Origin: an uncultured Alphaproteobacteria bacterium | GTDB taxonomy: Bacteria; Pseudomonadota; Alphaproteobacteria; Rhodobacterales; Rhodobacteraceae | Length of the DNA: 64,000 nt | Reading direction: 5' to 3' | Assembly: GCA_902537235.1 (NCBI GenBank) | Contig: CACBAO010000005.1 | Span: 19,951-83,950 of the forward strand | In this document: positions 13,107 through 57,586 of the stretch, one piece after another | Position numbering within the stretch: the first letter of the stretch is position 1 | Layout of the letters: each line of letters opens with the position of its first letter | Translations under genes and position numbers: made by a program | The notes under the pieces: model-generated | What the model saw: the letters and a program-made list of their open reading frames with translations, nothing else | Databases searched by the model: none | What the model was told of the DNA's origin: nothing

Positions 13107-14168
13107 ATGAAAAAACTATTTTTTGGTATTTTTTCTGTATTAATCATTTCTATTACTTCACATCTAGCGGTAGCTAAAGAGATAAGTGTTACTTATGTTG
13201 CTGGACATCCACCGGTATTCAGATGGGTGAAACACGTCAATCAAACATTTATTCCAGCAGTAAACAAATCTTTGGAGGGTAGTGGCCATTCCATAAAATG
13301 GAGTGAGCAATATGGGGGATCCTTGGCAAAAGTTGGAGATGAGCTTGAAGCGGTTGAAGAGGGGTTAGCTGAAATAGGAGGAATATCAAGCTTATTTGAC
13401 CCTGCTAAACTAGCGGTGCAAAACGTCACTTATTATTCTCCCTTTGTTTCAAGTAATGTCGACAAAGTATCTGAGTTAATGACAAGAATGCAGTTCGAAA
13501 ACAAAGATATGAAGGCAGCTTGGGAAGCGAATGGATTAATTCAGCTAGGTGGTTCCATTGCAATTGATGATTACTTACTAATGACAACTTTCCCAGTCAA
13601 TTCGATTGCCGATTTAAAAGGAAGAAAAATTGGAGCTCCTGGTCCTGCTGTTACTTGGTTGAAGGGAACAGGAGCAGTCGGAGTATCCGGTAATCTGACC
13701 ACTTACAACAATGAAATAAAAGCAGGGGTATATGACGGAGTAATAGTTTTTGCTTCTGCAGCATTGCCTGGCAAACTTCATGAGGTGGCCCCATATATTA
13801 CAAAATTTGGGTTTGGAGCTCAATATGCTGGCTCAATTGCGGCTAATAAAGATTGGTTTGAGTCTCAACCCGATGTTGTGCAGAAGGCTCTAATAGACGC
13901 TGGTGAAACATACCGAGTTGCATATCAAAAAGATCTAGGTGCATCAGTTGCTAAATTTCTGTCTATAATGGAATCTCAAGGAGCAAAGGTTTCTGAAGCT
14001 AGTCCCGAGATGAGGAAAAAATGGGCTGCTGGAATGGATAATGTTGCTATGGAGTGGGCTAAAAAACTAGACTCTTCTGGTGTGAATGGAACTGCAGTTC
14101 TAAAAGCCTATATGGACACGATGAGAGCTGCAGGAGCAAAGCCGGTTAGAAACTGGGATAAAGAGTAA
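13107..14168 (+). CDS. TRAP transporter substrate-binding protein (DctP family) with signal peptide
   Basis: There is an N-terminal signal sequence (MKKLFFGIFSVLIISITSHLAVA). Size is about 350 aa, and the gene is followed by DctQ- and DctM-type genes. Confidence 0.8.
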   Translation: MKKLFFGIFSVLIISITSHLAVAKEISVTYVAGHPPVFRWVKHVNQTFIPAVNKSLEGSGHSIKWSEQYGGSLAKVGDELEAVEEGLAEIGGISSLFDPAKLAVQNVTYYSPFVSSNVDKVSELMTRMQFENKDMKAAWEANGLIQLGGSIAIDDYLLMTTFPVNSIADLKGRKIGAPGPAVTWLKGTGAVGVSGNLTTYNNEIKAGVYDGVIVFASAALPGKLHEVAPYITKFGFGAQYAGSIAANKDWFESQPDVVQKALIDAGETYRVAYQKDLGASVAKFLSIMESQGAKVSEASPEMRKKWAAGMDNVAMEWAKKLDSSGVNGTAVLKAYMDTMRAAGAKPVRNWDKE

Positions 14169-20029: not shown

Positions 20030-21600
20030 TATGGCCTCATTGTTACAAGGTAAGGTTTTGGGCTTTTCAATCGGTAAGCTTTAAGCGCGAGTTCTAACCA
20101 AGATATTAGTCGTGGACGCGTTTCCCTAGGATCTATCAAATCATGGGCAGAAAAACCTTCTGCTCTTGGAATTGGTGATTGTCTTTGAGCTAATTGATCC
20201 TCAAGCTCCTTCTGTTTTTTTTCAGGATTTTTTGCCCTAGCAATTTCCTTTGAAAATGCAACGGCAACGCCACCTTCTACAGGTAAAGCACCACTTAAGG
20301 CACTGGGCCAAAGTAATGTGAAGCTATCAGGCCCATAGTGTGCAGTAGCGGCTACTCCAAAAGATTTATGCATATGCACAGACGCCCATGGCACTCTTGA
20401 TTGCATTATCGCGGATATTGCAGCAGTGCCAAATCTAATTGTACCACTTTTTTCTGACTCTGGACCAATCATGAATCCTGGTTCATCTACCAAACTGATA
20501 ATCGGAATATGGAAACTGTTACAAAAATCAGAAAATCTTTCTAATTTCTTTGAGGCACTGGTTGTCATCGCTCCTGCATAGAACATGCAGTCATTAGCGA
20601 TAACGCCAACTGATTGACCATTAAGTCTACCTAAGCCTGTTACGAGGCTTGGTCCATATTTTTTACCGATCTCGAAAAAGGTGCTTTGATCATCATTTAT
20701 ATCTAGTAGGGATGTGATGATCTTTCTTACGCTATATGGTCTACGTCTATCTTTTGGTATTATATCGATTAATAAATCATCACAACGATCCTCCTTGTCG
20801 TTAGTAGAAATAGAGTCTGGGAACGTCCAAGCATTATCTGGCACGAAGGAAAGGAATGTTTTTATTTGTTCAAAAGCGTCATCTTCTGTTTTTGCAAAGT
20901 TGTTTATTACTCCGCTTTTTAAGTGTACCTCAGGTCCACCGAGAGCTTCTTTCGTAACATCTATATTTAACGCTCTTTTTACGACTTTTGGCCCTGCTAT
21001 AAGCACTAACGAGCTCTCTGTCATTACTGAAAAGTGTGAAGCAACGAGACGAGATGCGGGCAGCCCGGCGACTGGTCCCAACGCAGCCGTTGCCACGGGG
21101 ACTTCTCCCAAAGTGTTAGCGAGCGAAATAAATCGTGAAGGCGTATATACGGCATCACTTGTAGGTCGATTACTTTTTTCTTGATTGGTGCCACCAACGG
21201 ATCCCCCAGCCCCTTCATGTAGTCGAATTAAAGGAACCTTGTATTTAAGTGCTAGCTCTTCTGTGTATATACTTTTCCTTAAACCGGCAGCATTTGGTGA
21301 TCCACCTTTTAAAGAAAAATCTTCTCCTCCTATGATCACTGGTCTTTTATTGATTTTCCCAAATCCTAGAATAAAGTTTCCGGGAGTAAATTTCTTGAGT
21401 GATCCATTATCATTATACTCCGAGTAACCAGCACTTTTACCAATTTCATTGAAAGATTTATTATCTAGTATCCTGTTGATCCTTTCTCTTATAGGTAGTC
21501 TGCCTTTTTTATACTGTAATTCTACAGCCTCTTTGCCACCCATTTGATCAGCAAAATTTCTCTTCTCATTAATTTCTTTTGCTTCTTTTTCCCAAGTCAA
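20029..21600 (-). CDS. acyl-CoA carboxylase carboxyltransferase (beta) subunit / acyl-CoA decarboxylase-like protein
   Basis: 523 aa two-lobed carboxyltransferase (IGGEDFSLKGGS, LHEGAGGS, ANDCMFYAGAM, PIISLVDEPGF). No biotin carboxylase or BCCP gene lies in the window. Confidence 0.85.
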   Translation of the reverse strand: MTWEKEAKEINEKRNFADQMGGKEAVELQYKKGRLPIRERINRILDNKSFNEIGKSAGYSEYNDNGSLKKFTPGNFILGFGKINKRPVIIGGEDFSLKGGSPNAAGLRKSIYTEELALKYKVPLIRLHEGAGGSVGGTNQEKSNRPTSDAVYTPSRFISLANTLGEVPVATAALGPVAGLPASRLVASHFSVMTESSLVLIAGPKVVKRALNIDVTKEALGGPEVHLKSGVINNFAKTEDDAFEQIKTFLSFVPDNAWTFPDSISTNDKEDRCDDLLIDIIPKDRRRPYSVRKIITSLLDINDDQSTFFEIGKKYGPSLVTGLGRLNGQSVGVIANDCMFYAGAMTTSASKKLERFSDFCNSFHIPIISLVDEPGFMIGPESEKSGTIRFGTAAISAIMQSRVPWASVHMHKSFGVAATAHYGPDSFTLLWPSALSGALPVEGGVAVAFSKEIARAKNPEKKQKELEDQLAQRQSPIPRAEGFSAHDLIDPRETRPRLISWLELALKAYRLKSPKPYLVTMRP

Positions 21601-21614
21601 TGTCTATCTCCAAT

Positions 21615-22514
21615 TTATTGTGTCTGGATTCCGTTAAGTTTCTCAACAAACTCTTTTTCGTTATAAAAATTCTTTTTACCGATCACAACAAATACAGACT
21701 CCTTTTCATTTTTTTCTGTTTTTTCGATTTTTAAAGTTAATCCATCATATTGGATTGTACATACTTCACCCTTTTTATTTTTAAAAAATCCTTTAGCTCT
21801 TTCGATATTATAAACTGGATCCCGCAAAAGTGTGCTTAGCGCCTCAGCATTCATTGTTCCAGTCGGTTTAATTGTTGAGGAAATAAATCCATGCTCCTGT
21901 TTTTTCTCTAAGTTTATTTTGTGACTAGGGCCAAAGTCTAGAAGCATATCTTCTTCTTCAATATATGCGTTTACCGTTTTAAGAAACTTTCGTATTTCAA
22001 AACGTTTTGATAGAGTGTCGATACAATTTAATAGCTCATCTTCTTTAAGCAAATCAGTTTTATTCAATACCAAGAGATCATGTTGCTCGATTTGTAAACT
22101 AATTGTATCACTGATATACAAGTCATTTAATTGTGACCTAAGTCGGGATGCGTCTGTTAACAACACCGTTCCATGAAATGACAGGAAGTCCATAAGCGAT
22201 ATTGTTTGTATAATTTTAGAAGGTAAAGCAATCCCGCTTGCCTCAAGCACAATATGATCTGGTAAAATCTCATTTGAATTCATACTCTCCAAAGTTTCTA
22301 TCAACTCATTTCCATAGCTACAACACACACATCCACCCGCGATGCTCAGAACGGAGTCAGTTCTAGCTTCAATTAAGGACTCATCAATGTTAACGTCACC
22401 AAAGTCATTTACCAGTAGAGCTATTTTTTTCTTAGTTGTCCTAAGTAAATTATTTATTAATGTCGTTTTACCTGTTCCAAGGTAACCGGAGATCAATGTC
22501 AGAGGAATACCCAC
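21615..22514 (-). CDS. COG0523 (CobW/YjiA/Nha3-type) G3E metallochaperone GTPase
   Basis: Walker A GYLGTGKTTLINNLL, metal motif GCVCCS, LNKTDL and a CobW_C-like C-terminal domain are present. Confidence 0.85.
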   Translation of the reverse strand: MGIPLTLISGYLGTGKTTLINNLLRTTKKKIALLVNDFGDVNIDESLIEARTDSVLSIAGGCVCCSYGNELIETLESMNSNEILPDHIVLEASGIALPSKIIQTISLMDFLSFHGTVLLTDASRLRSQLNDLYISDTISLQIEQHDLLVLNKTDLLKEDELLNCIDTLSKRFEIRKFLKTVNAYIEEEDMLLDFGPSHKINLEKKQEHGFISSTIKPTGTMNAEALSTLLRDPVYNIERAKGFFKNKKGEVCTIQYDGLTLKIEKTEKNEKESVFVVIGKKNFYNEKEFVEKLNGIQTQ

Positions 22515-24344: not shown

Positions 24345-25919
24345 ATGAATAAACATTTTTTAAAAACGTTACTTCTCACTGCTACTCTAATTTTTACGTC
24401 ATTAGGCGTATGTTTTGCAGAGCCGAAAAAGGGTGGTACTCTGATAGCTGCTGTTGGGAATAGCCCACGACATTTAAATCCAGCTGTTCAATCAGGAATT
24501 GTGACTGGGTTTCCGGGCGCACAACTCTTTGCAACACCAATTCGATATGACAATAATTGGGAACCACAGCCTTATCTTGCTGAGTCATGGGAAATAAGCG
24601 ATGGTGGAAAAACAGTTAGACTTAATCTTGTAAAAGATGCTGTGTTTCACGATGGAGTTCCTATTAAATCTAGTGACGTAAAGTTCTCCTTGGAAACAAT
24701 TAAAAAGAACCATCCCTTTAAAACCATGTTTGCTCCTGTTGTATCGGTCGAAACACCTGACGAGCATACAGCCATTTTAAAATTATCATCTCCACACCCC
24801 GCTTTAATGTTAGCCATGTCATCACAATTGATGGCTATAATACCTGAGCATGTTTATGGAGATGGTCAAGATCCAAAAACACATCCACAAAACTCTGAAA
24901 ATGTTGTTGGATCAGGTCCCTTTAAGCTCGTTGAATTTAAATCAGGTGAGCATATCATCTTGGAAAGATTTGATGACTTTTTTATAGATGGGAGACCATA
25001 CCTAGATAAGATGGTTCTTAAAATTATAAAAGATCCAGCAACCAGAACTATAGGGCTTGAAAATGGCGAAATTGATTTTTATGCCTTCGAAAATGTGGCT
25101 AGAAACATTGTTCGATTGAAAAAGAACGATAACCTGACAGTAACGCCTGATGGATATGCGGCCATTGGACCGATCGACTGGTTAGCTTTCAATACAAAAA
25201 CTGGAAAAACGGCTGACGTGAATGTTAGACGCGCTATCGCTTATGCAATAGACAGAAACTTCATTCTGAAAGCTATTATGCTTGGTGTTGCCGATGAGGC
25301 TCGAACTGGTATTCATCCTGGAAGTCCTTTTTATGAGCCGAATGTGGAGCCATATAATCTAGATATTGATAAGGCAAACAAAATACTTGATGATGCCGGT
25401 TATAAAAAGGGTAGTGATGGTATGCGGTTTGGATTGACAGTCGACTTTGGTTGGCCAGGGCTAAAACCAAACGCCGAATATACAAAGGCGGCACTCAAGA
25501 AAATAGGTATAGACGTAACCGTAAGAGCATCTGCCGACTTTCCAACATGGGCAAAGACTGTTAGCAACCATAATTTTGATCTAACCTGGGATACCGTTTT
25601 TAATTGGGGAGATCCTGTTATAGGTGTTCACAGAACCTATCAGACCTCTAATATAAAAAAGGGAGTTATCTGGTCTAACACTCAACAATATAGTAATCCA
25701 AAAGTGGATGCTATAATGGAGAAGGCTGGAGTAGAAAACGATATGGATAAGCGAAAAGCTCTATATTCAGAGTTACAAAAAATGCTGGCAAACGACTTGC
25801 CTGTATATTGGACAAATACTCTCCCTTATCATACCATTTACAGCAAGAAGGTTGGCAATCCTCCTATGGGAATTTGGGCAACCAGCTCTCCAATGGATAT
25901 GACATATATCAAAGATTAA
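24345..25919 (+). CDS. ABC transporter substrate-binding protein, family 5 (peptide/nickel/opine type)
   Basis: It has a signal peptide and is 524 aa. PKKGGTLIAAVGNSPRHLNP and RRAIAYAIDR are present. Confidence 0.85.
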   Translation: MNKHFLKTLLLTATLIFTSLGVCFAEPKKGGTLIAAVGNSPRHLNPAVQSGIVTGFPGAQLFATPIRYDNNWEPQPYLAESWEISDGGKTVRLNLVKDAVFHDGVPIKSSDVKFSLETIKKNHPFKTMFAPVVSVETPDEHTAILKLSSPHPALMLAMSSQLMAIIPEHVYGDGQDPKTHPQNSENVVGSGPFKLVEFKSGEHIILERFDDFFIDGRPYLDKMVLKIIKDPATRTIGLENGEIDFYAFENVARNIVRLKKNDNLTVTPDGYAAIGPIDWLAFNTKTGKTADVNVRRAIAYAIDRNFILKAIMLGVADEARTGIHPGSPFYEPNVEPYNLDIDKANKILDDAGYKKGSDGMRFGLTVDFGWPGLKPNAEYTKAALKKIGIDVTVRASADFPTWAKTVSNHNFDLTWDTVFNWGDPVIGVHRTYQTSNIKKGVIWSNTQQYSNPKVDAIMEKAGVENDMDKRKALYSELQKMLANDLPVYWTNTLPYHTIYSKKVGNPPMGIWATSSPMDMTYIKD

Positions 25920-25989: not shown

Positions 25990-26964
25990 ATGCCATTTTT
26001 TGTTTCACTGATTAGGCGCCTCGTTTCCATGCTCTTGGTTTTGCTTGTTGTAGTCGTCTTAAACTTTCTCATGCTGCATTTAGCTCCCGGTGATATTGCA
26101 GACACAATCGCTCAAACAATGGGGGGTGCTGACGAGCAAGATATGGCTGAATTGAGGAAGCAGTATGGGCTTGACCAACCATTTTTTATTCAGTTGTTTA
26201 ACTATGTTGTTAGGGTTGCTTTATTGGATTTTGGACATTCTCACTTTTACAATTTACCAGTATTTGACTTGATAATGGAGAGATTTCCTGCCACTTTATT
26301 ATTAGTTTTTTCAGCACAGATATTGTCTTTATTTGTAGGCATACTTTTAGGGGTATACGCTGCTCAAAACCCTAATGGACTATCAAGTCTTTTTGTAAAT
26401 ATGTTTTCTCTATTTGGTTACGCAGCTCCTGTATTTTGGACTGGAATTCTTTTATTGATTGCGTTCTCACTCCACATTCCTATTTTTCCAGTCTCAGGAA
26501 TGAGGGATATAACAATTGAAAGCGGTAATTTCTTTGTTCATTTCTTTGATGTACTTAGACACCTATTTTTACCTATGATAACACTGGCCTCTATATTTTT
26601 CGCCTATTATTCGCGTCTTTGTAGAGCGAGTATGTTAGAAGTACTGGGCGCGGACTTTGTTCGAACTGCTAAAGCGAAAGGACTATCCAAAAAGGACGTA
26701 TTACTGAAGCATGCACTAAAGAATTCTTTATCCCCAGTTATAACTTTTGCTGGACTGAGCTTTTCTGCCGTTGTCTCAGGGGCCATTCTCGTAGAAACGG
26801 TTTACAGTTGGCCAGGTTTAGGGACATTAGCATTTAATTCAATTATATCTAGGGATACGCCGGTTTTACTAGGCATCCTGATTTTCTCAACGCTAATGGT
26901 AACTGTAGGAAATCTTTTAACAGATTTAACGTTAAAAGCTTTAGACCCAAGAATAAAAATTTAA
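25990..26964 (+). CDS. ABC transporter permease (DppB/OppB type)
   Basis: The C-terminus is LTDLTLKALDPRIK, and there is an EAA-like loop FVRTAKAKGLSKKDVLLKHALKNSL. Confidence 0.9.
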   Translation: MPFFVSLIRRLVSMLLVLLVVVVLNFLMLHLAPGDIADTIAQTMGGADEQDMAELRKQYGLDQPFFIQLFNYVVRVALLDFGHSHFYNLPVFDLIMERFPATLLLVFSAQILSLFVGILLGVYAAQNPNGLSSLFVNMFSLFGYAAPVFWTGILLLIAFSLHIPIFPVSGMRDITIESGNFFVHFFDVLRHLFLPMITLASIFFAYYSRLCRASMLEVLGADFVRTAKAKGLSKKDVLLKHALKNSLSPVITFAGLSFSAVVSGAILVETVYSWPGLGTLAFNSIISRDTPVLLGILIFSTLMVTVGNLLTDLTLKALDPRIKI

Positions 26965-26973
26965 GGTTTCAGA

Positions 26974-27846
26974 ATGTTAGAAAATGAAGAAATTGAAGAA
27001 CCTACAATCAAGCCTGTTAAAGAAATTTTTCAGACATTCTTCAAGAGTTACTCAGCAGTTACAGGACTGATTATTCTTATTGGTATCGCAGTGATGGGCT
27101 TTATAGGACCAATATTTTATCCTACTGACCCCTTTGATATGGTATGGATGCCATTTTCGCCTCCAGGAGCCGATGGGTTTCTGTTAGGAACAGATTATTT
27201 AGGTCGTGATATCTTATCCCAAATTATCAACGGTGCACGCGTTTCGATAGCAATAGGTTTTTCTGCGGCTTTGGTTTCGTGTTTTATAGGGGTGGGTATA
27301 GGCTCATTCGCTGGGTTTTATGGCGGTTGGGTCGAAGAAACATTAATGAGAATAACTGAGTTTTTTCAAGTTTTACCAACCTTATTATTTGCTATGGTAA
27401 TCGTGGCGCTATTTGGCTCATCAGTACTTTCTATAACTCTAGCGATAGGAGCAGTTAGCTGGGCTAGTGTTGCTAGAATTACAAGATCAGAGTTTTTAAG
27501 AATAAAGGAGCTAGACTTTGTCTTAGCCTCACGCTCCTCTGGGAGCAATAATATGGCTTTAATTTTCAAAGTTATTTTACCCAACGCGGCAGCGCCAATA
27601 ATTGTACAATCAGCATTGTTGGTAGGAGCGGCAATTACATTTGAGGCAGGCTTAGCTTTTCTAGGTTTGTCAGACCCAAATGTCATAAGTTGGGGTCAGG
27701 TGATTGGATCTAACAGAGTGTATATTCTTGATGCAACATATACTGTTACATTTCCAGGAGTAGCAATTTTTATAACAGTGCTCGCTATATCTCTTGTAGG
27801 TGATGGTCTTAATGATGCGTTAAACCCAAAACTTAGGTCAAGGTAA
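26974..27846 (+). CDS. ABC transporter permease (DppC/OppC type)
   Basis: LLGTDYLGRDILSQII, VLASRSSGSNNMALIFKVILPN and GDGLNDALNPKLR are present. Confidence 0.9.
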   Translation: MLENEEIEEPTIKPVKEIFQTFFKSYSAVTGLIILIGIAVMGFIGPIFYPTDPFDMVWMPFSPPGADGFLLGTDYLGRDILSQIINGARVSIAIGFSAALVSCFIGVGIGSFAGFYGGWVEETLMRITEFFQVLPTLLFAMVIVALFGSSVLSITLAIGAVSWASVARITRSEFLRIKELDFVLASRSSGSNNMALIFKVILPNAAAPIIVQSALLVGAAITFEAGLAFLGLSDPNVISWGQVIGSNRVYILDATYTVTFPGVAIFITVLAISLVGDGLNDALNPKLRSR

Positions 27847-29648
27847 TGGAAGACCTAGTTTCAATAAATAATCTGAATATAGAGGCAAGGACAAGAGCCG
27901 GCACGCTAAAAGTGGTAAATGATCTCTCTTTTACGATAAAAAAAAGTGAGACTTTGTGTGTTGTCGGAGAGTCTGGATGTGGAAAATCGGTAACAGCATT
28001 GTCCTTGATGAGCTTATTACCTGAGGGAATATTAAACGTTTCGTCAGGAGATATCTTATTCGACAATACTAACCTAGCTCAATTATCAGAGGCAGAGATT
28101 GAGGGTATAAGAGGCAATGACATTTCAATGATATTTCAGGAGCCGATGACTTCTCTCAATCCTCTTTTTACAGTTGGAGAACAGGTTTCAGAAGTTATCA
28201 GACGGCATAAAAATCTCAATAAAGAAAAAGCATGGGTGAGTGCAGTAGAATTACTAGATGCTGTAAAAATTCCTAATCCAGATAAAAGAGCTTTTGATTA
28301 TCCTTTTCAGCTTTCTGGTGGACAACGACAAAGAGTTATGATCGCAATTGCGTTGGCGTGTCAGCCAAAAATCTTGATCGCGGATGAGCCAACAACAGCA
28401 TTAGATGTGACCATTCAAGCAGAAATACTTGCTTTGATTAATATGCTCAAACAAGAAACAGGTACTGCAGTAATGTTTATTACGCACGACATGGCGGTTG
28501 TAGCCCAAATGGCGGATCGTGTTGTTGTTATGCATCCAGGTAAAAAAGTCGAAGAGGGGACAGTACATGAGATTTTTAATAATCCTCAGCATGAGTACAC
28601 GAAGTCCCTCTTAGCGGCAGTTCCAAAACTCGGAGAGATGGCGAGCAAGAAATACCCTGAACCCATGCGGTTAGTAGGAGAGAAAAAGACAAAGGCCCTA
28701 AAACCTATTGTTGGCACAAATGAGCCCCTACTTGAAGTGAATAATTTGGTAACCCGCTACCCGGTCAAAGGGGGTGTATTGAGACGAACGGTGGCACGTG
28801 TTCACGCTGTTGAAGACGTATCTTTTACTATCATGAAAGGAAAGACACTTTCGCTTGTCGGTGAATCAGGGTGTGGTAAGTCAACGGTGGGACGCTCACT
28901 CATTCGATTGGTAGAGCCTACATCAGGGGATGTGAATTTAGACGGTCAGAATATACTATCACTTAATCAAAAGGATATGCGGGAAGCCCGTAGTAATATC
29001 CAGATGGTCTTTCAAGATCCTTTCTCATCATTAAATCCGCAACGACCACTTTTTGATCAAGTAGCGGAGCCGTTGCGTAATTATGGGACGGTTAAGCGTG
29101 AAATATTGCAAGAGAAGATTGGCGATCTCTTTGATCGTGTAAAATTACCACGAAGTTTTATGCAGCGCTATCCACATCAACTTTCGGGTGGTCAGCGTCA
29201 GCGGATAGCAATTGCACGTGCGCTAGCGCTTAACCCTAAGCTTATCATAGCAGATGAAGCAGTGAGTGCATTGGATGTATCGGTGCAAGCTCAAGTCTTA
29301 AACTTAATGATGGAACTCCAGGTTGATTTGGGTCTTTCCTTTTTATTCATCAGCCATGATATGGCGGTTGTTGAGCGGGTAAGCCATGATGTTGGTGTTA
29401 TGTACTTAGGACGCTTGGTAGAGATCGGTCCTAGGCAAGCTATTTTTCGTAATCCACAACATCCTTATACACAGGATTTATTAAAAGCTGTACCTATTGC
29501 GGATCCGGATAAGAGGAAGTCCGAAAGAGATCTAAACTTTAAACCGCTTCCATCACCTATTCATGATTTGAACTATAAGGCTGAACCATCTGTATATAGA
29601 AAAGTGGCTAAAGACCACTATGTGTTAACAACGGATTGTGGGTATTAA
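27846..29648 (+). CDS. fused double-NBD ABC ATPase (DppD-DppF / GsiA-like)
   Basis: Two Walker A motifs (GESGCGKS twice), two LSGGQRQR signatures and oligopeptide-type C-terminal regions. The start overlaps the permease stop. Confidence 0.9.
28400..29648 (+). repeat. copy A of a ~1.25-kb intragenomic duplicate shared by the two fused ABC ATPase genes (partner ~55176-56424, constant offset 26776 nt, no indels)
   Basis: Compared by eye: 29217-29636 is base-for-base identical to 55993-56412 (420 nt). Upstream, the copies differ at scattered, mostly third-codon positions. The 5' ~550 nt of the two genes are only distantly related. Confidence 0.9.
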
Positions 29649-29664
29649 AACTTAAATTGAGAAA

Positions 29665-30651
29665 GTGGATATAATGCAGAGTATGTTTAATAACATCAAT
29701 CGGGCTCGTGAAGTATTACAAGGACAAATTGTAAATACGCCAACGCTCAAACTGAATGAGGATGATATTCAAGAGATTCTTCCTCATAATGCTGATGTAT
29801 CTATAAAGCTGGAATTATTTCAGCAAACGGGCTCGTTTAAGGCGAGAGGTGTGGCTATCGGACTGGAAACTCTAGAGGAAGATAAAAAAGCTCAAGGTAT
29901 TGTAACCGTCACGGGAGGAAATCATGGCATCGCTACCGCTTGGGGTGCAAGTCAATACAATATTTCGGCAAAAATTATTATGCCAAAGACTGCAGACCCA
30001 TTTAGAATTGATAAATGCCGTAGCCTTGGCGCTCAAGTAATACTTGCTGAAAATGTTGATGATGCCTTTGCAAAATTAGATGAAATTGAAAAGGATGAAA
30101 ATCGTTTTGTGCTTCACCCATTTAATCAAGAAAACATGATAATTGGTTCAGCTACTTGTTGTGCTGAGATTATAGATCAGATGGGCGATATTGATATATT
30201 AATTATTCCAATCGGTGGAGGCGGACTGATAGGTGGTATGGCGCACTATCTTGAACAGATTAATGCGTCCGTTGAATTATTAGGGGTGGAGCCTACGGGA
30301 GCGGATAGTTTCGCACAAAGCTTGGAAAATGATAGTGCAGTAAGAATCAATAAAGTGAACACAATAGCCGACAGCTTAGGCGCTCCAATGGCCATGGACT
30401 TTTCTTTCAACATCGCAAAAAAGAGAGTAAATCAAGTTGAAAAAGTTACTGATAATGAAATACGCAGAGCAATGATTACCATGAGAGATAAGCTTGGATT
30501 TATTGTTGAACCTGCCTGTGCTACCTCTTTAGCTGGACTGTTAGAGCGATATAAAAAGAAATGTGAGGGTAAAAAAGTTGGAATAATTGCATGTGGCTCA
30601 AATATTTCATTCGAAAGATATAATGAAATATTAAAAGACTATAAAGACTAA
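29665..30651 (+). CDS. PLP-dependent serine/threonine dehydratase family enzyme (no ACT domain; could be a dehydratase or racemase)
   Basis: The PLP lysine motif SFKARG, GGNHG and a GGGGL glycine loop are present. Length is 328 aa. The start is GTG 29665 or ATG 29674. Confidence 0.8.
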   Translation: MDIMQSMFNNINRAREVLQGQIVNTPTLKLNEDDIQEILPHNADVSIKLELFQQTGSFKARGVAIGLETLEEDKKAQGIVTVTGGNHGIATAWGASQYNISAKIIMPKTADPFRIDKCRSLGAQVILAENVDDAFAKLDEIEKDENRFVLHPFNQENMIIGSATCCAEIIDQMGDIDILIIPIGGGGLIGGMAHYLEQINASVELLGVEPTGADSFAQSLENDSAVRINKVNTIADSLGAPMAMDFSFNIAKKRVNQVEKVTDNEIRRAMITMRDKLGFIVEPACATSLAGLLERYKKKCEGKKVGIIACGSNISFERYNEILKDYKD

Positions 30652-50754: not shown

Positions 50755-51687
50755 TTATCTTTTCCTCATTCTTGGGTCGAGGGCATCTCTAAGTCCGTCA
50801 CCAAGATAATTGATACTTAAAACCGTCAGCGAAATTGCAAGGCCTGGCCAAAAAACCCTTTCTGGGTACTGCTGTATATAGTCAACAGCATCATTTAAAA
50901 GCCGGCCCCATGTCGGAAAATCGGGAGGAAAACCTAAGCCTAAAAAGGATAATGCACTTTCCGTGATAATACCATTGGCAATTCCGAGGGTCGCAGATAC
51001 CATTATAGGGGACAAGACATTTGGCATTATATGCCTTAAAATAATCAGAGTATCTGAAGTGCCACTTGCTTTGGCTGCTAACACAAACTCTCTTTCTTTA
51101 AGTGCCAGAACGTCAGCCCGTACTATTCTGGCTGTAGGCATCCAACTCGTGATACCAATGGAAACCACAATTAAAACAAACATTCCTCTCTCGGGACCAT
51201 ACGCCTCGCTGAGCGGCTCTCTAAATAAGAGCATCATCACTAAAAGGAGTGGAAGTAGGGGTAAAGAAAGAAATAAATCAGTAATCCGCATAAGAATGCC
51301 ATCCAATTTTTTATAAAAACCGGCAGTCACTCCTATGAAACTTCCAAAAAACAAAGACAGGGCCATTGCTGCTAATCCTACTGCAATTGATGTACGCCCC
51401 CCTGCCATCATTCTTGCCAATGTATCCCTACCTAACTGATCGGTTCCAAATGGATGCAATAAGCTGGGACCTTGGTTGCGAGATCTAATATCAATTTGAT
51501 TTGCGTCAAAGGGCCAAAGAAATGGTCCAATCATTACTAGCATAACAATTGAGAAGAATATTATCGCTCCCAGAAGAGCGCCTTTGTGGCTCTTGAACTG
51601 ATCCCAAACATCTCTAACTTTACTGCGTGGCTTTCCAGTGATATTATTGTTATCAGTCATAGCGTATCCTTGGATCAAGTATTCCAT
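50755..51687 (-). CDS. ABC transporter permease (DppC/OppC type)
   Basis: PFGTDQLGRDTLARMM, VLAAKASGTSDTLIILRHIMPN and GDGLRDALDPRMR are present. Confidence 0.9.
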   Translation of the reverse strand: MEYLIQGYAMTDNNNITGKPRSKVRDVWDQFKSHKGALLGAIIFFSIVMLVMIGPFLWPFDANQIDIRSRNQGPSLLHPFGTDQLGRDTLARMMAGGRTSIAVGLAAMALSLFFGSFIGVTAGFYKKLDGILMRITDLFLSLPLLPLLLVMMLLFREPLSEAYGPERGMFVLIVVSIGITSWMPTARIVRADVLALKEREFVLAAKASGTSDTLIILRHIMPNVLSPIMVSATLGIANGIITESALSFLGLGFPPDFPTWGRLLNDAVDYIQQYPERVFWPGLAISLTVLSINYLGDGLRDALDPRMRKR

Positions 51688-52660
51688 AAATGATGTCAGC
51701 TAATAAGTTGAAAAGCACTATTAATACGGCAAACATAAATGTAATCGTTTGTACGGTTGGTAGGTCGTTGGCATAAATTGCGCCAATTAATTGTTGGCCT
51801 ATACCATTTACCTTAAACACTTGTTCTGTAATAATTGCTCCCCCAAAGATTGCGGGCACGTTTAAAGCGATCACCGTTATTACTGGAATCATGGAATTCC
51901 TCAATACATGGACCATCACGACAGTCCACTCACTTAGCCCCTTTGCCCTTGCGGTTCTGACATAATCTTGATTTAAATTATCAAGCATAGTTGCTCGCAT
52001 AAATCTATTTATCATGGCTGTTGTTTGGAGTGCTAAAACCATAACTGGCATGACCATTTGTTTTAATTGAATCTTGAATGTTTCCCAATCGACTACAGAG
52101 TGTGTTGTATCATAAATTGATGGCAACCACCCCAATTGGACAGAAAAAATCACTATAACAAATACTCCAGTGAAAAACGGTGGTACTGAATAACCAATCA
52201 TTGTAACGAAAGTACCGACCTGATCAAAAACCGAGTATTGTTTGTAAGCTGAATATATTCCTATGGGAATAGCGATTAAAATACCAACAACGTAAGACAT
52301 TCCAACAACCCATAGTGTTTGGGGCATTCGTTGAACAATTATATCCATTACAGGACTACGAGTTTGCCAGCTAATTACTCTTTGTTTGCCTTCAGAAAAG
52401 CTCGTATCGAAAAGGTAATCTATAAATACTTGGGGTTCTATCCAAAAAAATTGGATCAGCCATTTTAAAAATTGAATGTAGAGGGGCTGTCCAAGCCCTA
52501 ATGCCTCCCTCATTTTTTGCTTTACTTCTGGAGGAACAGTTAGTGGTACTTGAGCCATAGGATCGTTAGGCGCTAAGTTAAGCAACAAAAAGATGACCAA
52601 ACTAATAACAATCAGTGTTGGGATCGAAATTAATAAACGTCTAGAAATGAAGCTAAGCAT
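51653..52660 (-). CDS. ABC transporter permease (DppB/OppB type)
   Basis: YVRTARAKGLSEWTVVMVHVLRNSMIP and the C-terminus ADIIYGILDPRIRY are present. It overlaps the downstream permease gene by 35 nt. Confidence 0.9.
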   Translation of the reverse strand: MLSFISRRLLISIPTLIVISLVIFLLLNLAPNDPMAQVPLTVPPEVKQKMREALGLGQPLYIQFLKWLIQFFWIEPQVFIDYLFDTSFSEGKQRVISWQTRSPVMDIIVQRMPQTLWVVGMSYVVGILIAIPIGIYSAYKQYSVFDQVGTFVTMIGYSVPPFFTGVFVIVIFSVQLGWLPSIYDTTHSVVDWETFKIQLKQMVMPVMVLALQTTAMINRFMRATMLDNLNQDYVRTARAKGLSEWTVVMVHVLRNSMIPVITVIALNVPAIFGGAIITEQVFKVNGIGQQLIGAIYANDLPTVQTITFMFAVLIVLFNLLADIIYGILDPRIRYD

Positions 52661-52688
52661 TCTAATTTTATGCTGAAGTTTAACGAAT

Positions 52689-52716
52689 AAAGGCGCAACC
52701 CTTGAGTTGCGCCCTT
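52689..52716 (-). terminator. GC-rich hairpin between the binding-protein and permease genes (attenuator or stabiliser)
   Basis: On the plus strand, GGCGCAAC (52692-52699) pairs with GTTGCGCC (52706-52713). On the transcribed strand it lies just after the binding-protein stop and is followed by TTTATTCGTT. Confidence 0.4.
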
Positions 52717-52722
52717 ACAAAA

Positions 52723-54435
52723 TTATTTAATTCGGTACCAATCGGCAACATTCCAGAGTTCGGAGTCCCATGTGTTCAACACAACTCCGCCAAGGGATTT
52801 GGCATGAGCTGAAACTCTTCCTCTATGTACCAAAGGAACAATTGTGTAGCTATCCTTAGTCAACATATTGTTGAGCTTAATTCCGATCTCTCCTCTCTTC
52901 TTGAGGTCACCGGTAGCGGACAACTCATCTAGCAACGCGTCATAGGCTGGGTCGCAATATCTATTAATATTCTCACCCTGCCATTGGCTTTCTGGCTTTG
53001 GCTCGTTACCACATCTATACATGGAAAGGTAATTTTGAGGGTCAGTACCATCAAATGTATTTGCATACATTTCTACATCAGCATAGAATTTTTGAAAAGT
53101 ATCTGGTGAACCAGGGTCCCCTCCAAAGAAAACCGATGCGTTTAGGTTCCTCAACTCAGTTTCAACACCAATTTGCTGCCACCAGTCTTTAATAAGAGCT
53201 TGGAAGTCTTGTCTTACGGCATTAGTAGATGTTTGGTATAAAATAGAGAGCTTTACACCATCCTTAGCTCTAATACCATCCGAACCTTTTTTCCATCCAG
53301 CGCTTTCTAGCAAAGCATTGGCCCCAGCTATATCCTGTTTCATGCAATAATCATTTTTAGCTGCATACAAGTCTGGAGCAGGAACAAGATCACAAGTAAC
53401 ATCACCAGCTTTGCCATACCCTATTTCTACTAGTAATGTTCGATCTATTGCCATCGATAGCGCTTTACGAACGTTGATATCTGTTAGAAATGGATGGGGA
53501 GCTTTCCTCGTAGCTCTGGTATTTGCATCTAAATCTGGAGATGGGTCTGTTAAATTCATTTCTAATCTTTCAACCAATGGTCCAAAGCCGGCGATTGCGA
53601 TACCTTTTCCAGCTTTTTCCATATTAGCAATAACTTCAGGTGCTAATTGTAGGTTCCAAGCATAATCGAATTCCCCTGTTTCAAGTACTGATCTTCCTGC
53701 AGCTGTTGCATCTCCGCCACCTTTAAAAGTAACAGTTGCAAAAGCTGGTTTGTTAGGATCTCTGTAGTTGTCATTAGCTTTCATTTGAATGACATCATTA
53801 GGCTTAAATTCAGTAACTACAAACGGTCCAGTTCCAATGGGCCCAAAATTTGCGTCGGTACAATTTGGTGCTTTTGCGCCCATACAGTTTTCGAACTGTT
53901 TTTTCTGTATTATTGGCGATTGGCCACCCATGAAAGGACCGTAAGGGTTTGGTTTAGGTGCAGAAAATTTTACAACGATAGTTCTTTCGTCAGGGGTTGA
54001 TACTGAAGTCACCCCATCAAATTTTGCTAACTGTGCACAGCCTCCCTCAGGGTGCATGCAGTAATCTGCAGTAAATTTTACATCAGCTGATGTAACTGCT
54101 GAACCATCAGACCACTTTAAACCCTTTTTGAGCTTCCACGTAATAGACATTAGGTCTGAACTAACGCCTCCGTTTTCAACGGTCGGAATCTCTTCAGCCA
54201 AATAGGGAACAAGAGCTCCTGTTTCGGTATATCTTCCTAGCGGTTCAATAATCATCGATGACGACTCAATATCCTTTGTTCCGCTAGAGAGGTATGGGTT
54301 CAAAATTGAAGGTGCTTGCCAGTATATTATGCTAACATTTCCATCAGAACCCCTTCCTGCAAAACTAGCGGTAGCTATAAGAACTGCAGCTAGTCCCACA
54401 AATAAAGATTTAATTTTCATATTATTTTCTCCCAA
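52723..54435 (-). CDS. ABC transporter substrate-binding protein, family 5 (peptide/opine type)
   Basis: It has a signal peptide (KIKSLFVGLAAVLIATASFA) and is 570 aa. VRKALSMAIDR is present. It is not similar to the binding protein at 24345. Confidence 0.85.
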   Translation of the reverse strand: MGENNMKIKSLFVGLAAVLIATASFAGRGSDGNVSIIYWQAPSILNPYLSSGTKDIESSSMIIEPLGRYTETGALVPYLAEEIPTVENGGVSSDLMSITWKLKKGLKWSDGSAVTSADVKFTADYCMHPEGGCAQLAKFDGVTSVSTPDERTIVVKFSAPKPNPYGPFMGGQSPIIQKKQFENCMGAKAPNCTDANFGPIGTGPFVVTEFKPNDVIQMKANDNYRDPNKPAFATVTFKGGGDATAAGRSVLETGEFDYAWNLQLAPEVIANMEKAGKGIAIAGFGPLVERLEMNLTDPSPDLDANTRATRKAPHPFLTDINVRKALSMAIDRTLLVEIGYGKAGDVTCDLVPAPDLYAAKNDYCMKQDIAGANALLESAGWKKGSDGIRAKDGVKLSILYQTSTNAVRQDFQALIKDWWQQIGVETELRNLNASVFFGGDPGSPDTFQKFYADVEMYANTFDGTDPQNYLSMYRCGNEPKPESQWQGENINRYCDPAYDALLDELSATGDLKKRGEIGIKLNNMLTKDSYTIVPLVHRGRVSAHAKSLGGVVLNTWDSELWNVADWYRIK

Positions 54436-54594: not shown

Positions 54595-56424
54595 ATGCTA
54601 GATGATAAAAAACCCCTCGCATCCTTCGAAAACTTACGTGTTGAGTTTGATACTAAGGATGGAAAGGTTGTGGCAGTTGAGAATATTTCCTTTGAGATAA
54701 AGCCGCAGCAAACCGTATGCTTGGTCGGTGAGTCTGGTTCTGGGAAATCCGTCTCATCGCTTTCCATGATGAGGCTTGTTGAATTTGGCGGTGGGAGCTT
54801 GGCCGGTGGCAAGTTGATTTTTAATAGAGGTGATAAAGAATCAATTGACGTAGCAGTCTCTAATCAGTCTCAAATGAGAAAAATCAGGGGTAATGAAATT
54901 GGTATGATATTTCAAGAACCCATGACCGCGTTAAATCCCGTTTTCACGGTTGAAAGACAATTGACTGAAGGTCTAATGGTTCATAAAGGGTTTTCAAAGA
55001 GAGAAGCGAAGAAAAGAGCGTTAGAGCTAATGACTATGGCAAAAATACCAGAGCCTGAGAGAAGATTAAAACAATTTCCACATGAACTCTCTGGCGGCAT
55101 GAGGCAAAGAGTAGTAATAGCTATCGCGCTGGCGTGCCAGCCAAGACTTTTAATCGCTGACGAGCCCACAACAGCTTTGGATGTGACCATTCAAGCAGAA
55201 ATACTCGCTTTAATAAATCGATTGAAGGAAGAAACAGGTACAGCAGTGATGTTTATTACGCATGATATGGCAGTGGTAGCGCAAATGGCAGATCGTGTTG
55301 TGGTTATGTACCAAGGCAAGAAAGTCGAAGAGGGAACAGTACATGAGATTTTCAATAATCCTCAGCATGAGTATACGAAGTCCCTCTTAGCAGCGGTTCC
55401 AAAACTTGGAGAGATGGCAAGTAAGAAATATCCCGAACCCATGCGGTTAGTAGGAGAGAAAAAGACAAAGGCTTTAAAGCCTATTGTAGGAACGAATGAG
55501 CCCCTGCTTAAAGTGAATAATCTAGTGACTCGCTACCCGGTTAAAGGGGGTGTATTGAGAAGAACGGTAGCACGTGTTCACGCTGTTGAGGATGTATCTT
55601 TTACTATTATGAAAGGAAAGACACTTTCGCTTGTAGGGGAGTCAGGTTGTGGTAAGTCAACGGTGGGACGCTCACTCATTCGATTGGTAGAGCCTACTGC
55701 AGGAGATGTGAATTTAGATGGTCAGAATATACTATCACTTAATCAAAAGGATATGCGGGAAGCCCGTAGAAATATCCAGATGGTGTTTCAAGATCCCTTC
55801 GCCTCATTAAATCCTCAAATGATGTTAATTGATCAAGTAGCGGAACCGTTTCGTAATTATGGGACAATGAAGCATGAAGTATTGCAGGAGAAGATTGGAG
55901 ATCTCTTTGATCGTGTAAAATTACCACGAAGTTTTATGCAACGCTATCCCCATGAACTTTCCGGTGGTCAGCGTCAGCGGATAGCAATTGCGCGTGCGCT
56001 AGCGCTTAACCCTAAGCTTATCATAGCAGATGAAGCAGTGAGTGCATTGGATGTATCGGTGCAAGCTCAAGTCTTAAACTTAATGATGGAACTCCAGGTT
56101 GATTTGGGTCTTTCCTTTTTATTCATCAGCCATGATATGGCGGTTGTTGAGCGGGTAAGCCATGATGTTGGTGTTATGTACTTAGGACGCTTGGTAGAGA
56201 TCGGTCCTAGGCAAGCTATTTTTCGTAATCCACAACATCCTTATACACAGGATTTATTAAAAGCTGTACCTATTGCGGATCCGGATAAGAGGAAGTCCGA
56301 AAGAGATCTAAACTTTAAACCGCTTCCATCACCTATTCATGATTTGAACTATAAGGCTGAACCATCTGTATATAGAAAAGTGGCTAAAGACCACTATGTG
56401 TTAACAACGGATAGTGGGTATTAA
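54595..56424 (+). CDS. fused double-NBD ABC ATPase (DppD-DppF / GsiA-like), mosaic paralog of 27846-29648
   Basis: Walker A motifs GESGSGKS and GESGCGKS, with signatures LSGGMRQR and LSGGQRQR. The C-terminal ~415 aa are nearly identical to the other ATPase. Confidence 0.9.
55176..56424 (+). repeat. copy B of the ~1.25-kb duplicate (partner ~28400-29648)
   Basis: Same comparison as copy A: 55993-56412 equals 29217-29636 exactly. Identity ends just after the stop codons. Confidence 0.9.
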
Positions 56425-57586
56425 TAAGATGAGTGAATTATCGGCTTTAGAAATTCTGGAAAAATTAGTTAGCTTTCCCACGGTAAGCGATAGAAGTAAT
56501 CTTGAGCTTATTGACTGGGTAGAAAATTACTTAAACTCATTTCAAATAGAGACATACAGAAAATATAATGAAGACAAGAGTAAGGCTTCACTATTTGCTC
56601 ATGTAGGTCCGCAAATAGAGGGAGGCGTAGTGCTATCTGGCCATACGGATGTAGTTCCGGTTGAAGGCCAAGATTGGAGCACTGATCCTTGGGTACTTAC
56701 AGAAAATGATAATAAACTTTATGGTCGGGGATCCTGCGATATGAAGGGATTTGATGCATTGGCTATTTGGGCAATGATTGAAGCCAACAAGAGTGAACTG
56801 AAAAGACCTCTCCAGGTAGCACTTAGTTATGATGAGGAAGTTGGCTGTATAGGCGCGCCTCCGATGATAGACGAAATGATAAAAAAATTGCCAAAAGCCA
56901 GTATGGTAATTGTTGGAGAACCATCCACTATGCTCGCAGTAACTGGACATAAGGGTGCTCTAGGTTTTACAACACATTTAGTTGGGAAAGAGGTTCATTC
57001 CTCAATATTAGATAGAGGTGTTAGTGCAATAATGAATGGAGCAAAGTTGATAGACTGGGCTAACGAACAGAATATAAACAATAAAAAAGCTGAGCAGACA
57101 GAGACTGCAAAGTTATTTGACCCTCCCTATACCACTTTACATGTAGGTGTTGTAAAAGGAGGAACAGCACATAATATAACCGCAAAAGATTGTCATTTTG
57201 AAATGGACATAAGAGTTGTTTCGGACCAAAAAGTTGATTTTTGGATTGAAAAATATAACGAAAAAGTACAAGAGATAGAAACTGAAATGAAAGCCATCTC
57301 GGAAGATGCAAAAATAATTGTTTCAAATAGATCTGCAGTGCCAGGGTTAAGACCGGAAACTAATGGTGAAGCTGAAACTTTTGTCAGACAAATTACTGGG
57401 GATAATGGGAACCATTTTGTTTCTTATGGCACCGAGGCTGGTCAATTTCAAGAAAGAGGGTATTCTGCTGTTATATGTGGGCCAGGTGATATTTCTGTAG
57501 CCCATCAACCTAACGAATACATTGAGAAATCTCAGTTTGAACTTGGCCGCAGCTTTATGAAAAATATGATCAAAAAGCTTTCTTGA
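56414..57586 (+). CDS. argE: M20-family deacylase, acetylornithine deacetylase (ArgE)-like
   Basis: GHTDVVPVEGQDWSTDPW, GRGSCDMKG and DEEVGC are present. The start is GTG 56414 (11-nt overlap with the ATPase gene) or, more likely, ATG 56429. Confidence 0.75.
   Translation: MGINKMSELSALEILEKLVSFPTVSDRSNLELIDWVENYLNSFQIETYRKYNEDKSKASLFAHVGPQIEGGVVLSGHTDVVPVEGQDWSTDPWVLTENDNKLYGRGSCDMKGFDALAIWAMIEANKSELKRPLQVALSYDEEVGCIGAPPMIDEMIKKLPKASMVIVGEPSTMLAVTGHKGALGFTTHLVGKEVHSSILDRGVSAIMNGAKLIDWANEQNINNKKAEQTETAKLFDPPYTTLHVGVVKGGTAHNITAKDCHFEMDIRVVSDQKVDFWIEKYNEKVQEIETEMKAISEDAKIIVSNRSAVPGLRPETNGEAETFVRQITGDNGNHFVSYGTEAGQFQERGYSAVICGPGDISVAHQPNEYIEKSQFELGRSFMKNMIKKLS

Follow-up and report, generated by a model that had tools for sequence, protein, structure and literature searches.

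In the window analysed here, a 64,000-nt stretch of contig CACBAO010000005.1 from a low-GC marine Paracoccaceae genome, two paralogous genes for fused double-domain ATP-binding cassette (ABC) ATPases, designated A and B, lie as direct repeats 26.8 kb apart. Very probably, the 3′ ends of these genes undergo interlocus gene conversion and evolve in concert, the latest tract having been copied from B to A. The final 1,319 nt of both genes would have evolved together because DNA was repeatedly copied between them in a non-reciprocal and homology-dependent manner, presumably by a RecA-type mechanism. The latest event would have transferred at least 420 nt from B to A, and probably 432 nt, reaching the 3′ end of the homology. 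The genome carrying the window (designated G000) is an assembly of 1.92 Mb in 59 contigs, with a G+C content of 37% and a completeness of 80.6%, and resembles a metagenome-assembled draft. The central features are as follows:

27846-29648, + strand: gene A, fused double-domain ABC ATPase of 600 amino acids (aa) (Pfam: two ABC_tran and two oligo_HPY domains)
54595-56424, + strand: gene B, paralogous fused ABC ATPase of 609 aa (Pfam, NCBIfam)
28330-29648, + strand: homogenised block in A, 1,319 nt, codons ~162-600 plus stop (91.9% identity, no indels)
55106-56424, + strand: homogenised block in B, partner of 28330-29648 (same comparison)
29217-29636, + strand: putative recent conversion tract, recipient copy in A, probably continuing to the homology end at 29648
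55993-56412, + strand: putative recent conversion tract, donor copy in B (from identity and tree position)

Identity between the two ATPase genes

An ungapped comparison at an offset of 26776 nt showed that positions 29217-29636 match 55993-56412 perfectly over 420 nt, as had been read from the letters alone in a preliminary description of this DNA. That description had also reported one substitution 12 nt ahead of the stop and a loss of similarity right past the stop codons, and both were seen: the sole mismatch between the tract and the stop is 29637 T (TGT, Cys) in A versus 56413 A (AGT, Ser) in B, positions 29638-29648 are identical again (11 nt, stop included), and beyond the stop identity drops to 15-32%. 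Over the final 143 codons, A and B thus show one difference. In the upstream part of the block (28330-29216), identity is 84-90%, and the differing codons are mostly synonymous, as described earlier (73 synonymous, 19 nonsynonymous).

Divergence along the genes is non-uniform, in line with the preliminary description, passing through zones of ~56%, 88% and 100% identity, and it is uneven at third-codon positions too, which differ at 0/144 sites in the tract versus 80/296 outside it. When the 107 mismatches were placed at random 200,000 times, the longest clean run was 187 nt (mean 61), and the analytic probability of a clean run of 420 nt at a background divergence of 12% is ~1e-20.

Extent of the homogenised block

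The maximum chi-square breakpoint between the ~56% and 88% zones was found at 28350 (codon ~162), where the first domain has its LSGG signature. The start of the high-identity zone, formerly put at about 28400, was therefore moved to ~28330-28350. The copies are collinear without indels, as had been described for the last ~1.25 kb, but the block itself measures 1,319 nt and the indel-free collinearity reaches back to ~28086, where identity is 55%. Likewise, the N-terminal divergence noted for the first ~180 codons stands, with its limit nearer codon 160-162.

The block starts within the first domain, of which it encodes the C-terminal 40% with the signature motif, Walker B, D-loop and H-loop, and it continues through the linker and the second domain to take in the C-terminal domain as well. 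The concerted evolution formerly attributed to the second nucleotide-binding domain therefore includes that domain but extends to 40% of the first one, and the N-terminal nucleotide-binding domain, which had been considered locus-specific, is so over its first 160 codons only, its C-terminal 40% lying in the shared block. The same block boundaries recur in a sister lineage (G010/G022) and in a long-read contig.

Comparison with related genomes

Genes of the A and B types were searched for in 22 same-genus genomes and in more distant ones. In the same-genus genomes all A-type genes are located in A flanks and all B-type genes in B flanks, and because every gene type sits in matching flanks the orthology of A and B is secure. 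In G001, G009 and G020 the two genes are ~26 kb apart on a single contig.

Different parts of the genes gave conflicting trees. For codons 1-160, the A genes formed one clade (support 100/100) on a very long branch, and B resembled the single-copy gene of the outgroups. In segment trees and identity matrices, the 3′ block grouped by lineage, not by locus, and a tree with A as one clade was rejected both for codons 163-456 (approximately unbiased (AU) test, p 3.8e-68) and for codons 457-600 (AU p 5.2e-26).

The identity values show the same pattern. G010 and G022 are sister genomes with 97.6% identity in the flanks of the B locus. The A gene of the former and the B gene of the latter share 91.9% identity over the same block (1,327 nt), but only ~75% with A or B of the G000 lineage. 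In the C segment, this pair is 88-97% identical versus ~75% to other lineages, A and B of G000 are 99.5% identical versus 85-92% to their orthologues, and A and B of G001 are 92.4% identical versus 82-88% to their own orthologues. A long-read, Pilon-polished contig of 292 kb carries A and B 26,014 nt apart with a block identity of 90.7%, and its longest identical run (140 nt) is situated elsewhere in the block than the G000 tract. Because the 3′ block clusters by lineage and the one-clade A trees are rejected, these data argue for concerted evolution rather than for one frozen old chimera. The proposal, made from the sequence, that conversion occurred repeatedly and left a very recent tract at the 3′ end is thus supported by the conflicting segment trees, by the clustering by lineage and by the identity of synonymous sites.

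A separate observation concerns the A gene of G009 (L011, contig 1), whose nucleotide identity is 70-74% both with other A genes and with the B gene of G009 itself, in a locus that is overall ~81% identical to the window. Possibly, the allele was replaced here by one from a more remote lineage.

Direction and age of the recent tract

In the C-segment tree, A and B of G000 are placed together within the B clade of G003, G009 and G017 (support 99/99). A comparison of A orthologues with the closest B orthologues gave the following sites:

29572-29603, + strand: nine A-versus-B diagnostic sites, with the B state in both copies
29637, + strand: single mismatch site, Cys in A versus Ser in B (56413); Cys in all other A and B genes of the genus

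The C-terminal tail of A is here the B-type sequence of 12 residues, while the usual A tail is THDPAPSEYKEV; of the seven other genomes that have A and B on one contig, six show a locus-specific tail. Over codons 1-160 the A gene of G002 matches A at 98.8%, and it keeps the A-type tail, yet in the C segment its identity to A is just 86.8%. With the closest B orthologue the tract shares 91.7% identity. Taken together, the A-type tail of the G002 gene and the nesting in the B clade date the copying from B to A to the time since this lineage separated from its closest sampled relative. The comparison of donors in related genomes, suggested at the outset as a check, was thus carried out and identifies B as the apparent donor, on the strength of the nesting, the nine B-type sites and the A tail kept in G002. 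The recent tract appears to have overwritten the normally locus-specific tail of A; the earlier alternative that the C-terminal half of one ATPase was recently replaced describes the same outcome, the 3′ end of A being overwritten from B.

Since every other A and B gene of the genus has Cys at the mismatch site, the Ser at 56413 is private to this B; the change either arose after the conversion or lies just beyond the edge of the tract. In Salmonella, conversion tracts of the tuf genes can extend either way and stop at the limits of homology (PMC5485169), and a tract reaching the stop codon fits this behaviour.

Origin of the mosaic gene A

Residues 1-160 of A share 44-51% identity with B, two further paralogue types and the outgroups, and the remainder shares 93-99% with B. 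Outgroup genomes match B at both ends, at ~70% in the N-terminal part and ~75% in the remainder. In metagenome relatives, identity is ~70% for the N-terminus of B, ~75% for the shared part and at most 53% for the N-terminus of A. A metagenome scan with protein A returned distant relatives only (at most 76% identity over the C-terminal 440 aa), and there was no independent copy of the G000 genome among them; an exact look-up in public assemblies likewise found neither A nor B on record. When the N-terminus of A was compared with 5.8 billion proteins, the best 120 matches all belonged to the A clade, down to 71% identity; neither these 120 nor the third and fourth paralogue types of the genus provided a source between ~53% identity and the A clade. 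As outgroup and metagenome sequences match B at both ends and the A N-terminus at 53% or less, B is the native gene of the lineage and the 5′ quarter of A is either foreign or very old. Judged by these comparisons, gene A is a mosaic of 160 locus-specific codons, which encode Walker A, the Q-loop and the helical subdomain of the first domain and lack close relatives beyond the genus, and a remainder of B lineage.

Locus-specific positions within the block

A/B differences inside the block were compared in 11 pairs, namely eight on single contigs (51 kb to 1.57 Mb) plus those of G001, G020 and G010/G022. Twelve amino-acid positions (165, 175, 176, 200, 203, 230, 231, 394, 400, 401, 403 and 445) differ in 8-11 of the 11 pairs. 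They are distributed as follows:

28338-28537, + strand: 5′-edge cluster, codons 165, 175, 176, 200, 203, 230 and 231 (A/B pair comparison)
29043-29052, + strand: internal island, codons 400-403, RPLF in A versus MMLI in B (55819-55828) (alignments)
codons 394 and 445 (29178), + strand: further locus-specific codons (A/B pair comparison)

The fixed differences comprise 10 nonsynonymous and 4 synonymous codons versus 9 and 69 among the non-fixed ones (Fisher p 8e-6), and this nonsynonymous excess points to selection on the amino acids, not to a mere absence of conversion. N397 and E408 of A, between which codons 400-403 are located, align with N113 and E124 of E. coli DppF, residues that contact the coupling helix of DppC (PMC12136057). 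Positions 165-231 lie in the core of the first domain, beside its locus-specific half, where they may have a role. It is likely that conversions covering these approximately twelve positions are selected against, either near the locus-specific half-domain or at the permease-docking surface of the second domain, although we infer both the selection and the structural role.

B-type residues at 400-403 occur in ~28 of 116 public proteins with an A-type N-terminus. A loss of locus specificity at these codons was considered and rejected: four of the five such proteins examined are encoded on hybrid contigs with B downstream genes, and the positions hold in contigs that carry both genes.

Alternative explanations

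Several points weigh against gene conversion from B to A, or against parts of the interpretation built upon it. A bubble-popping assembler could turn a tract of 98-99% identity into a perfect one, and the draft is 80% complete and in 59 contigs. The genomes of the genus are related, and the counts made across them are not independent. Three sites inside the tract (29334-29339) are A-type in both copies, so that either the donor itself was a mosaic or these sites are derived in the three reference B genes; the direction from B to A, as read from diagnostic sites, is firm only for the last ~80 nt. With regard to selection, sites at the block edge may convert less often for purely mechanical reasons, the cluster of 9 mismatches in 10 nt at codons 400-403 could block the extension of heteroduplex, and one public gene in a true A context (L147) carries B-type residues at these codons.

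There is only a slight chance that the identity is an artefact of assembly, the 3′ end having been collapsed or copied between the loci while the true copies differ as they do elsewhere. G000 is a draft-like assembly in 59 contigs with 80.6% completeness, near-identical repeats do collapse in short-read assemblers, and the joining of the A 5′ side to the B 3′ side in four public contigs (see below) makes graph mis-joins at the repeat at least possible. Against this, the B-type sites at 29572-29603 are only 46-77 nt away from A-only downstream sequence, with a shared stretch of 11 nt before the homology end, and a k-mer graph cannot join such B-type sites to A-only sequence without reads that span both. 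A collapse would also need shared k-mers and hence true copies that were already ~97% or more alike, while the closest A orthologue reaches only 86.8%. A B-type tail also ends the A gene of a separate metagenome-assembled genome (L143), where a contig of 36 kb shows the full A context around it.

Moreover, the assemblies of relatives break at such repeats rather than copy them. Contigs end within these ATPase genes in six same-genus assemblies (loci L036-L058): in G007, G008 and G014 the two paralogues are cut off at one and the same homologous base, and in G003, G013 and G017 one copy is interrupted. The coincident contig ends are suggestive, though no proof, of longer identical tracts (e.g., ~776 nt in G008) that short reads did not bridge. 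No shared k-mer overlaps were found at the paired contig ends of the relatives.

We attach similarly little weight to an import from outside, in which the 3′ end of A was replaced by recombination with DNA of another strain, for instance a carrier of an A/B hybrid, and not with the resident B. Hybrid A/B genes of the kind found in public contigs could have acted as donors, as they have A homology on one side, and alleles in the G001 species are highly mosaic. The tract is nevertheless identical to the resident B over 420 nt, while the closest B orthologue is 91.7% identical, which makes the resident copy the most economical donor; furthermore, a hybrid donor would have no A homology past the stop, exactly where A's own sequence resumes.

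The least probable explanation is a single ancient chimera pre-dating the radiation of the genus, with copies kept alike by constraint and without ongoing exchange: it would account for the block boundaries (signature motif to stop) shared by all lineages examined and agrees with the high conservation of the protein, but not with synonymous sites that are alike too (none of the 144 third positions differing in the tract), with within-lineage A/B identities of ~92% versus ~75% for cross-lineage orthologues, with the separate within-genome tracts of G001 and G000, or with the rejection of the one-clade A trees.

The two transporter loci

Gene A is the final gene of a transporter operon (binding protein, two permeases, ATPase), and gene B is divergent from its own binding-protein and two permease genes, which fall within the 26.8-kb interval separating the repeats (50755-54435, - strand). 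The neighbouring features are:

24345-25919, + strand: A-locus family-5 solute-binding protein (Pfam)
25990-26964, + strand: A-locus DppB-like permease (Pfam)
26974-27846, + strand: A-locus DppC-like permease (Pfam)
29665-30651, + strand: PLP-dependent dehydratase-like gene, marker of the A context, adjoining the 3′ end of A
50755-51687, - strand: B-locus DppC-like permease (Pfam)
51653-52660, - strand: B-locus DppB-like permease (Pfam)
52723-54435, - strand: B-locus binding protein (Pfam)
56429-57586, + strand: ArgE-like M20 deacylase gene, marker of the B context, adjoining the 3′ end of B

The amino-acid identity between the loci is 26% for the binding proteins and 32% and 37% for the permeases. 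These partners, described before as not similar, are therefore distant but not unrelated, since they are homologous. The pyridoxal phosphate (PLP)-dependent dehydratase-like gene is kept 3′ of A in relatives and is unlike the sequence downstream of B. For the ArgE-like gene, the probable start is the ATG at 56429 and not the GTG at 56414 given by an open reading frame finder, which would overlap B; the gene is called as 385 aa in L146, L148 and L150.

Both ATPases have the architecture of fused DppD/DppF-type proteins, with two ABC_tran domains each followed by oligo_HPY, and adjacent genes for an SBP_bac_5 protein and two BPD_transp_1 proteins. Walker A, Q-loop, signature and Walker B motifs are present in both halves of A and B (alignments). 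The best NCBIfam model for both is GsiA (753 bits for A and 763.3 bits for B), but both scores are below the 1077-bit cut-off of the GsiA equivalog (NF007613). On domain content, A and B are best regarded as GsiA-like in architecture and of predicted DppD/DppF type, and were not filed as GsiA.

The nearest solved structures are the fused M. tuberculosis Rv1281c OppD (8J5Q) and DppD (8WD9) and E. coli DppD/DppF (8Z1V), with E values from 2e-136 to 1e-69; like A and B, these peptide-family ATPases combine two ATP-binding domains that both carry a C-terminal oligo_HPY region. The DppC-contacting residues of E. coli DppF are conserved in A as N397 and E408. Unlike E. coli DppD/DppF, whose C-terminal domains contain four-cysteine [4Fe-4S]-binding clusters, neither A nor B has such clusters in the alignment (A, 28600-28700 and 29500-29648), and in this they resemble M. 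tuberculosis DppD.

The A/B pair is the largest repeat in the 1.92-Mb assembly. Outside the window, contig C30 contains a second dispersed repeat (13765-14166 and 21453-21852; 404 nt, 92% identity, 7.7 kb apart), one of just four repeats detected in this streamlined assembly.

Predicted deletion junction in public contigs

The preliminary description had further proposed that the repeats are a substrate for a 26.8-kb deletion. Six public proteins with an A-type N-terminus and B-type residues were examined; two are encoded in the normal A context (L143 and L147) and four on hybrid contigs (L144, L145, L146 and L148). On the latter, A-locus binding-protein and permease genes are followed by a hybrid ATPase gene (5′ part from A, 3′ part from B) and by B downstream sequence, so that the 26-kb interval is skipped. 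Matching context of at least 2.5 kb on each side is present in L146 (GCA_045565115.1, a 30-kb contig) and L148 (ERZ842729 NODE_122, 31.8 kb), both of which have M20 deacylase, CbiM and M29 peptidase genes 3′ of the hybrid. In L144 the M20 gene is found 3′ of the hybrid, and L145 includes 138 nt of the sequence downstream of B. The switch from A to B in L146 is located within a 72-nt run that is identical between A and B of G001.

Such a hybrid is the exact product of recombination between direct repeats, and equally of a graph mis-join. The proposal is supported insofar as the predicted junction exists in four public contigs, which represent either a natural deletion or assembly chimeras. There was no deletion in any of the 22 species representatives, in which each full-length A gene keeps A's downstream flank.

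L146, L147 and L148, from three assemblies of a G001-like species, are differing mosaics of A-type and B-type sequence, with 12-14 switches over 1.3 kb. The mosaics of the G001 species reflect either very frequent conversion in the population or shared polymorphism combined with mixing during assembly.

Relation to known systems and significance

Abdulkarim and Hughes are said to have described, in 1996, concerted evolution of tufA and tufB via RecA-dependent gene conversion in Salmonella and other bacteria. The A/B case resembles tuf in that two dispersed paralogues of the same chromosome undergo non-reciprocal transfer, the tracts measuring a few hundred bases and stopping where homology ends, and in that the paralogues are closer to one another than to their orthologues. 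It differs in that the tuf copies are functionally equivalent and are converted over their full length, whereas A and B have only the 3′ 73% of the gene in common, their 5′ quarter is unrelated at the DNA level, and their proteins serve different transporters.

Gene conversion between bacterial paralogues is well known, e.g., for tuf genes and rRNA operons (PMC5485169, PMC6053082). Wang and Chen (2018; PMC6053082) found recurrent concerted evolution of prokaryotic paralogues, mostly subunits of stable complexes, and ascribed it to ongoing gene conversion. As in their cases, A and B cluster by species instead of locus, but here the conversion affects part of the gene and is confined, as sampled, to one genus. 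The terms 'ABC', 'transporter' and 'ATP-binding' are absent from the main text of that article.

The multitask ATPases MsmX, MsiK and MsmK are single ATPases that each work with several permease pairs of type I ABC importers (PMC7658222). The two situations are alike in that much of the ATP-binding domain is not transporter-specific. The multitask ATPases, however, are single genes common to several sugar importers, whereas each peptide-type importer studied here has its own ATPase gene, and the module would be shared by copying of DNA. A and B were not classified as multitask ATPases of the MsmX/MsiK type, each locus having its own ATPase gene beside its own permeases.

A and B represent a clear but ordinary case of gene conversion, which is instructive for its domain-level mosaic, its conserved locus-specific residues and a possible deletion polymorphism. 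A more far-reaching combination of these elements is conceivable, although we consider it doubtful: that the ATPases contain an interchangeable module, running from the middle of the first domain through the linker and the second domain to the C-terminal domain, which they share by continuing conversion, that selection keeps only the N-terminal 160 residues and about twelve positions locus-specific, and that the repeats drive a recurrent 26-kb deletion in wild populations. If this were true, the two genes would constitute a natural domain-swap experiment that marks the residues deciding the permease pair of a fused ATPase, and the deletion, besides fusing A with B, would eliminate the entire B importer and ~20 kb of accessory genes.

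In their 3′ three-quarters, these ATPase genes reflect lineage and not orthology, and trees or annotation transfers based on that part are therefore misleading. The repeat also breaks, and possibly mis-joins, short-read metagenome assemblies of an abundant marine group. To our knowledge, what determines the pairing of an ATPase with its permeases is a question not settled by structures alone. If the twelve positions are indeed held by selection, the pairing of a fused peptide-family ATPase with its permeases would come down to a short list of residues that can be tested. Finally, the 25 kb between the direct repeats include a sensor-kinase locus and one entire importer, which makes the repeats a plausible hotspot of gene-content variation in a streamlined genome.

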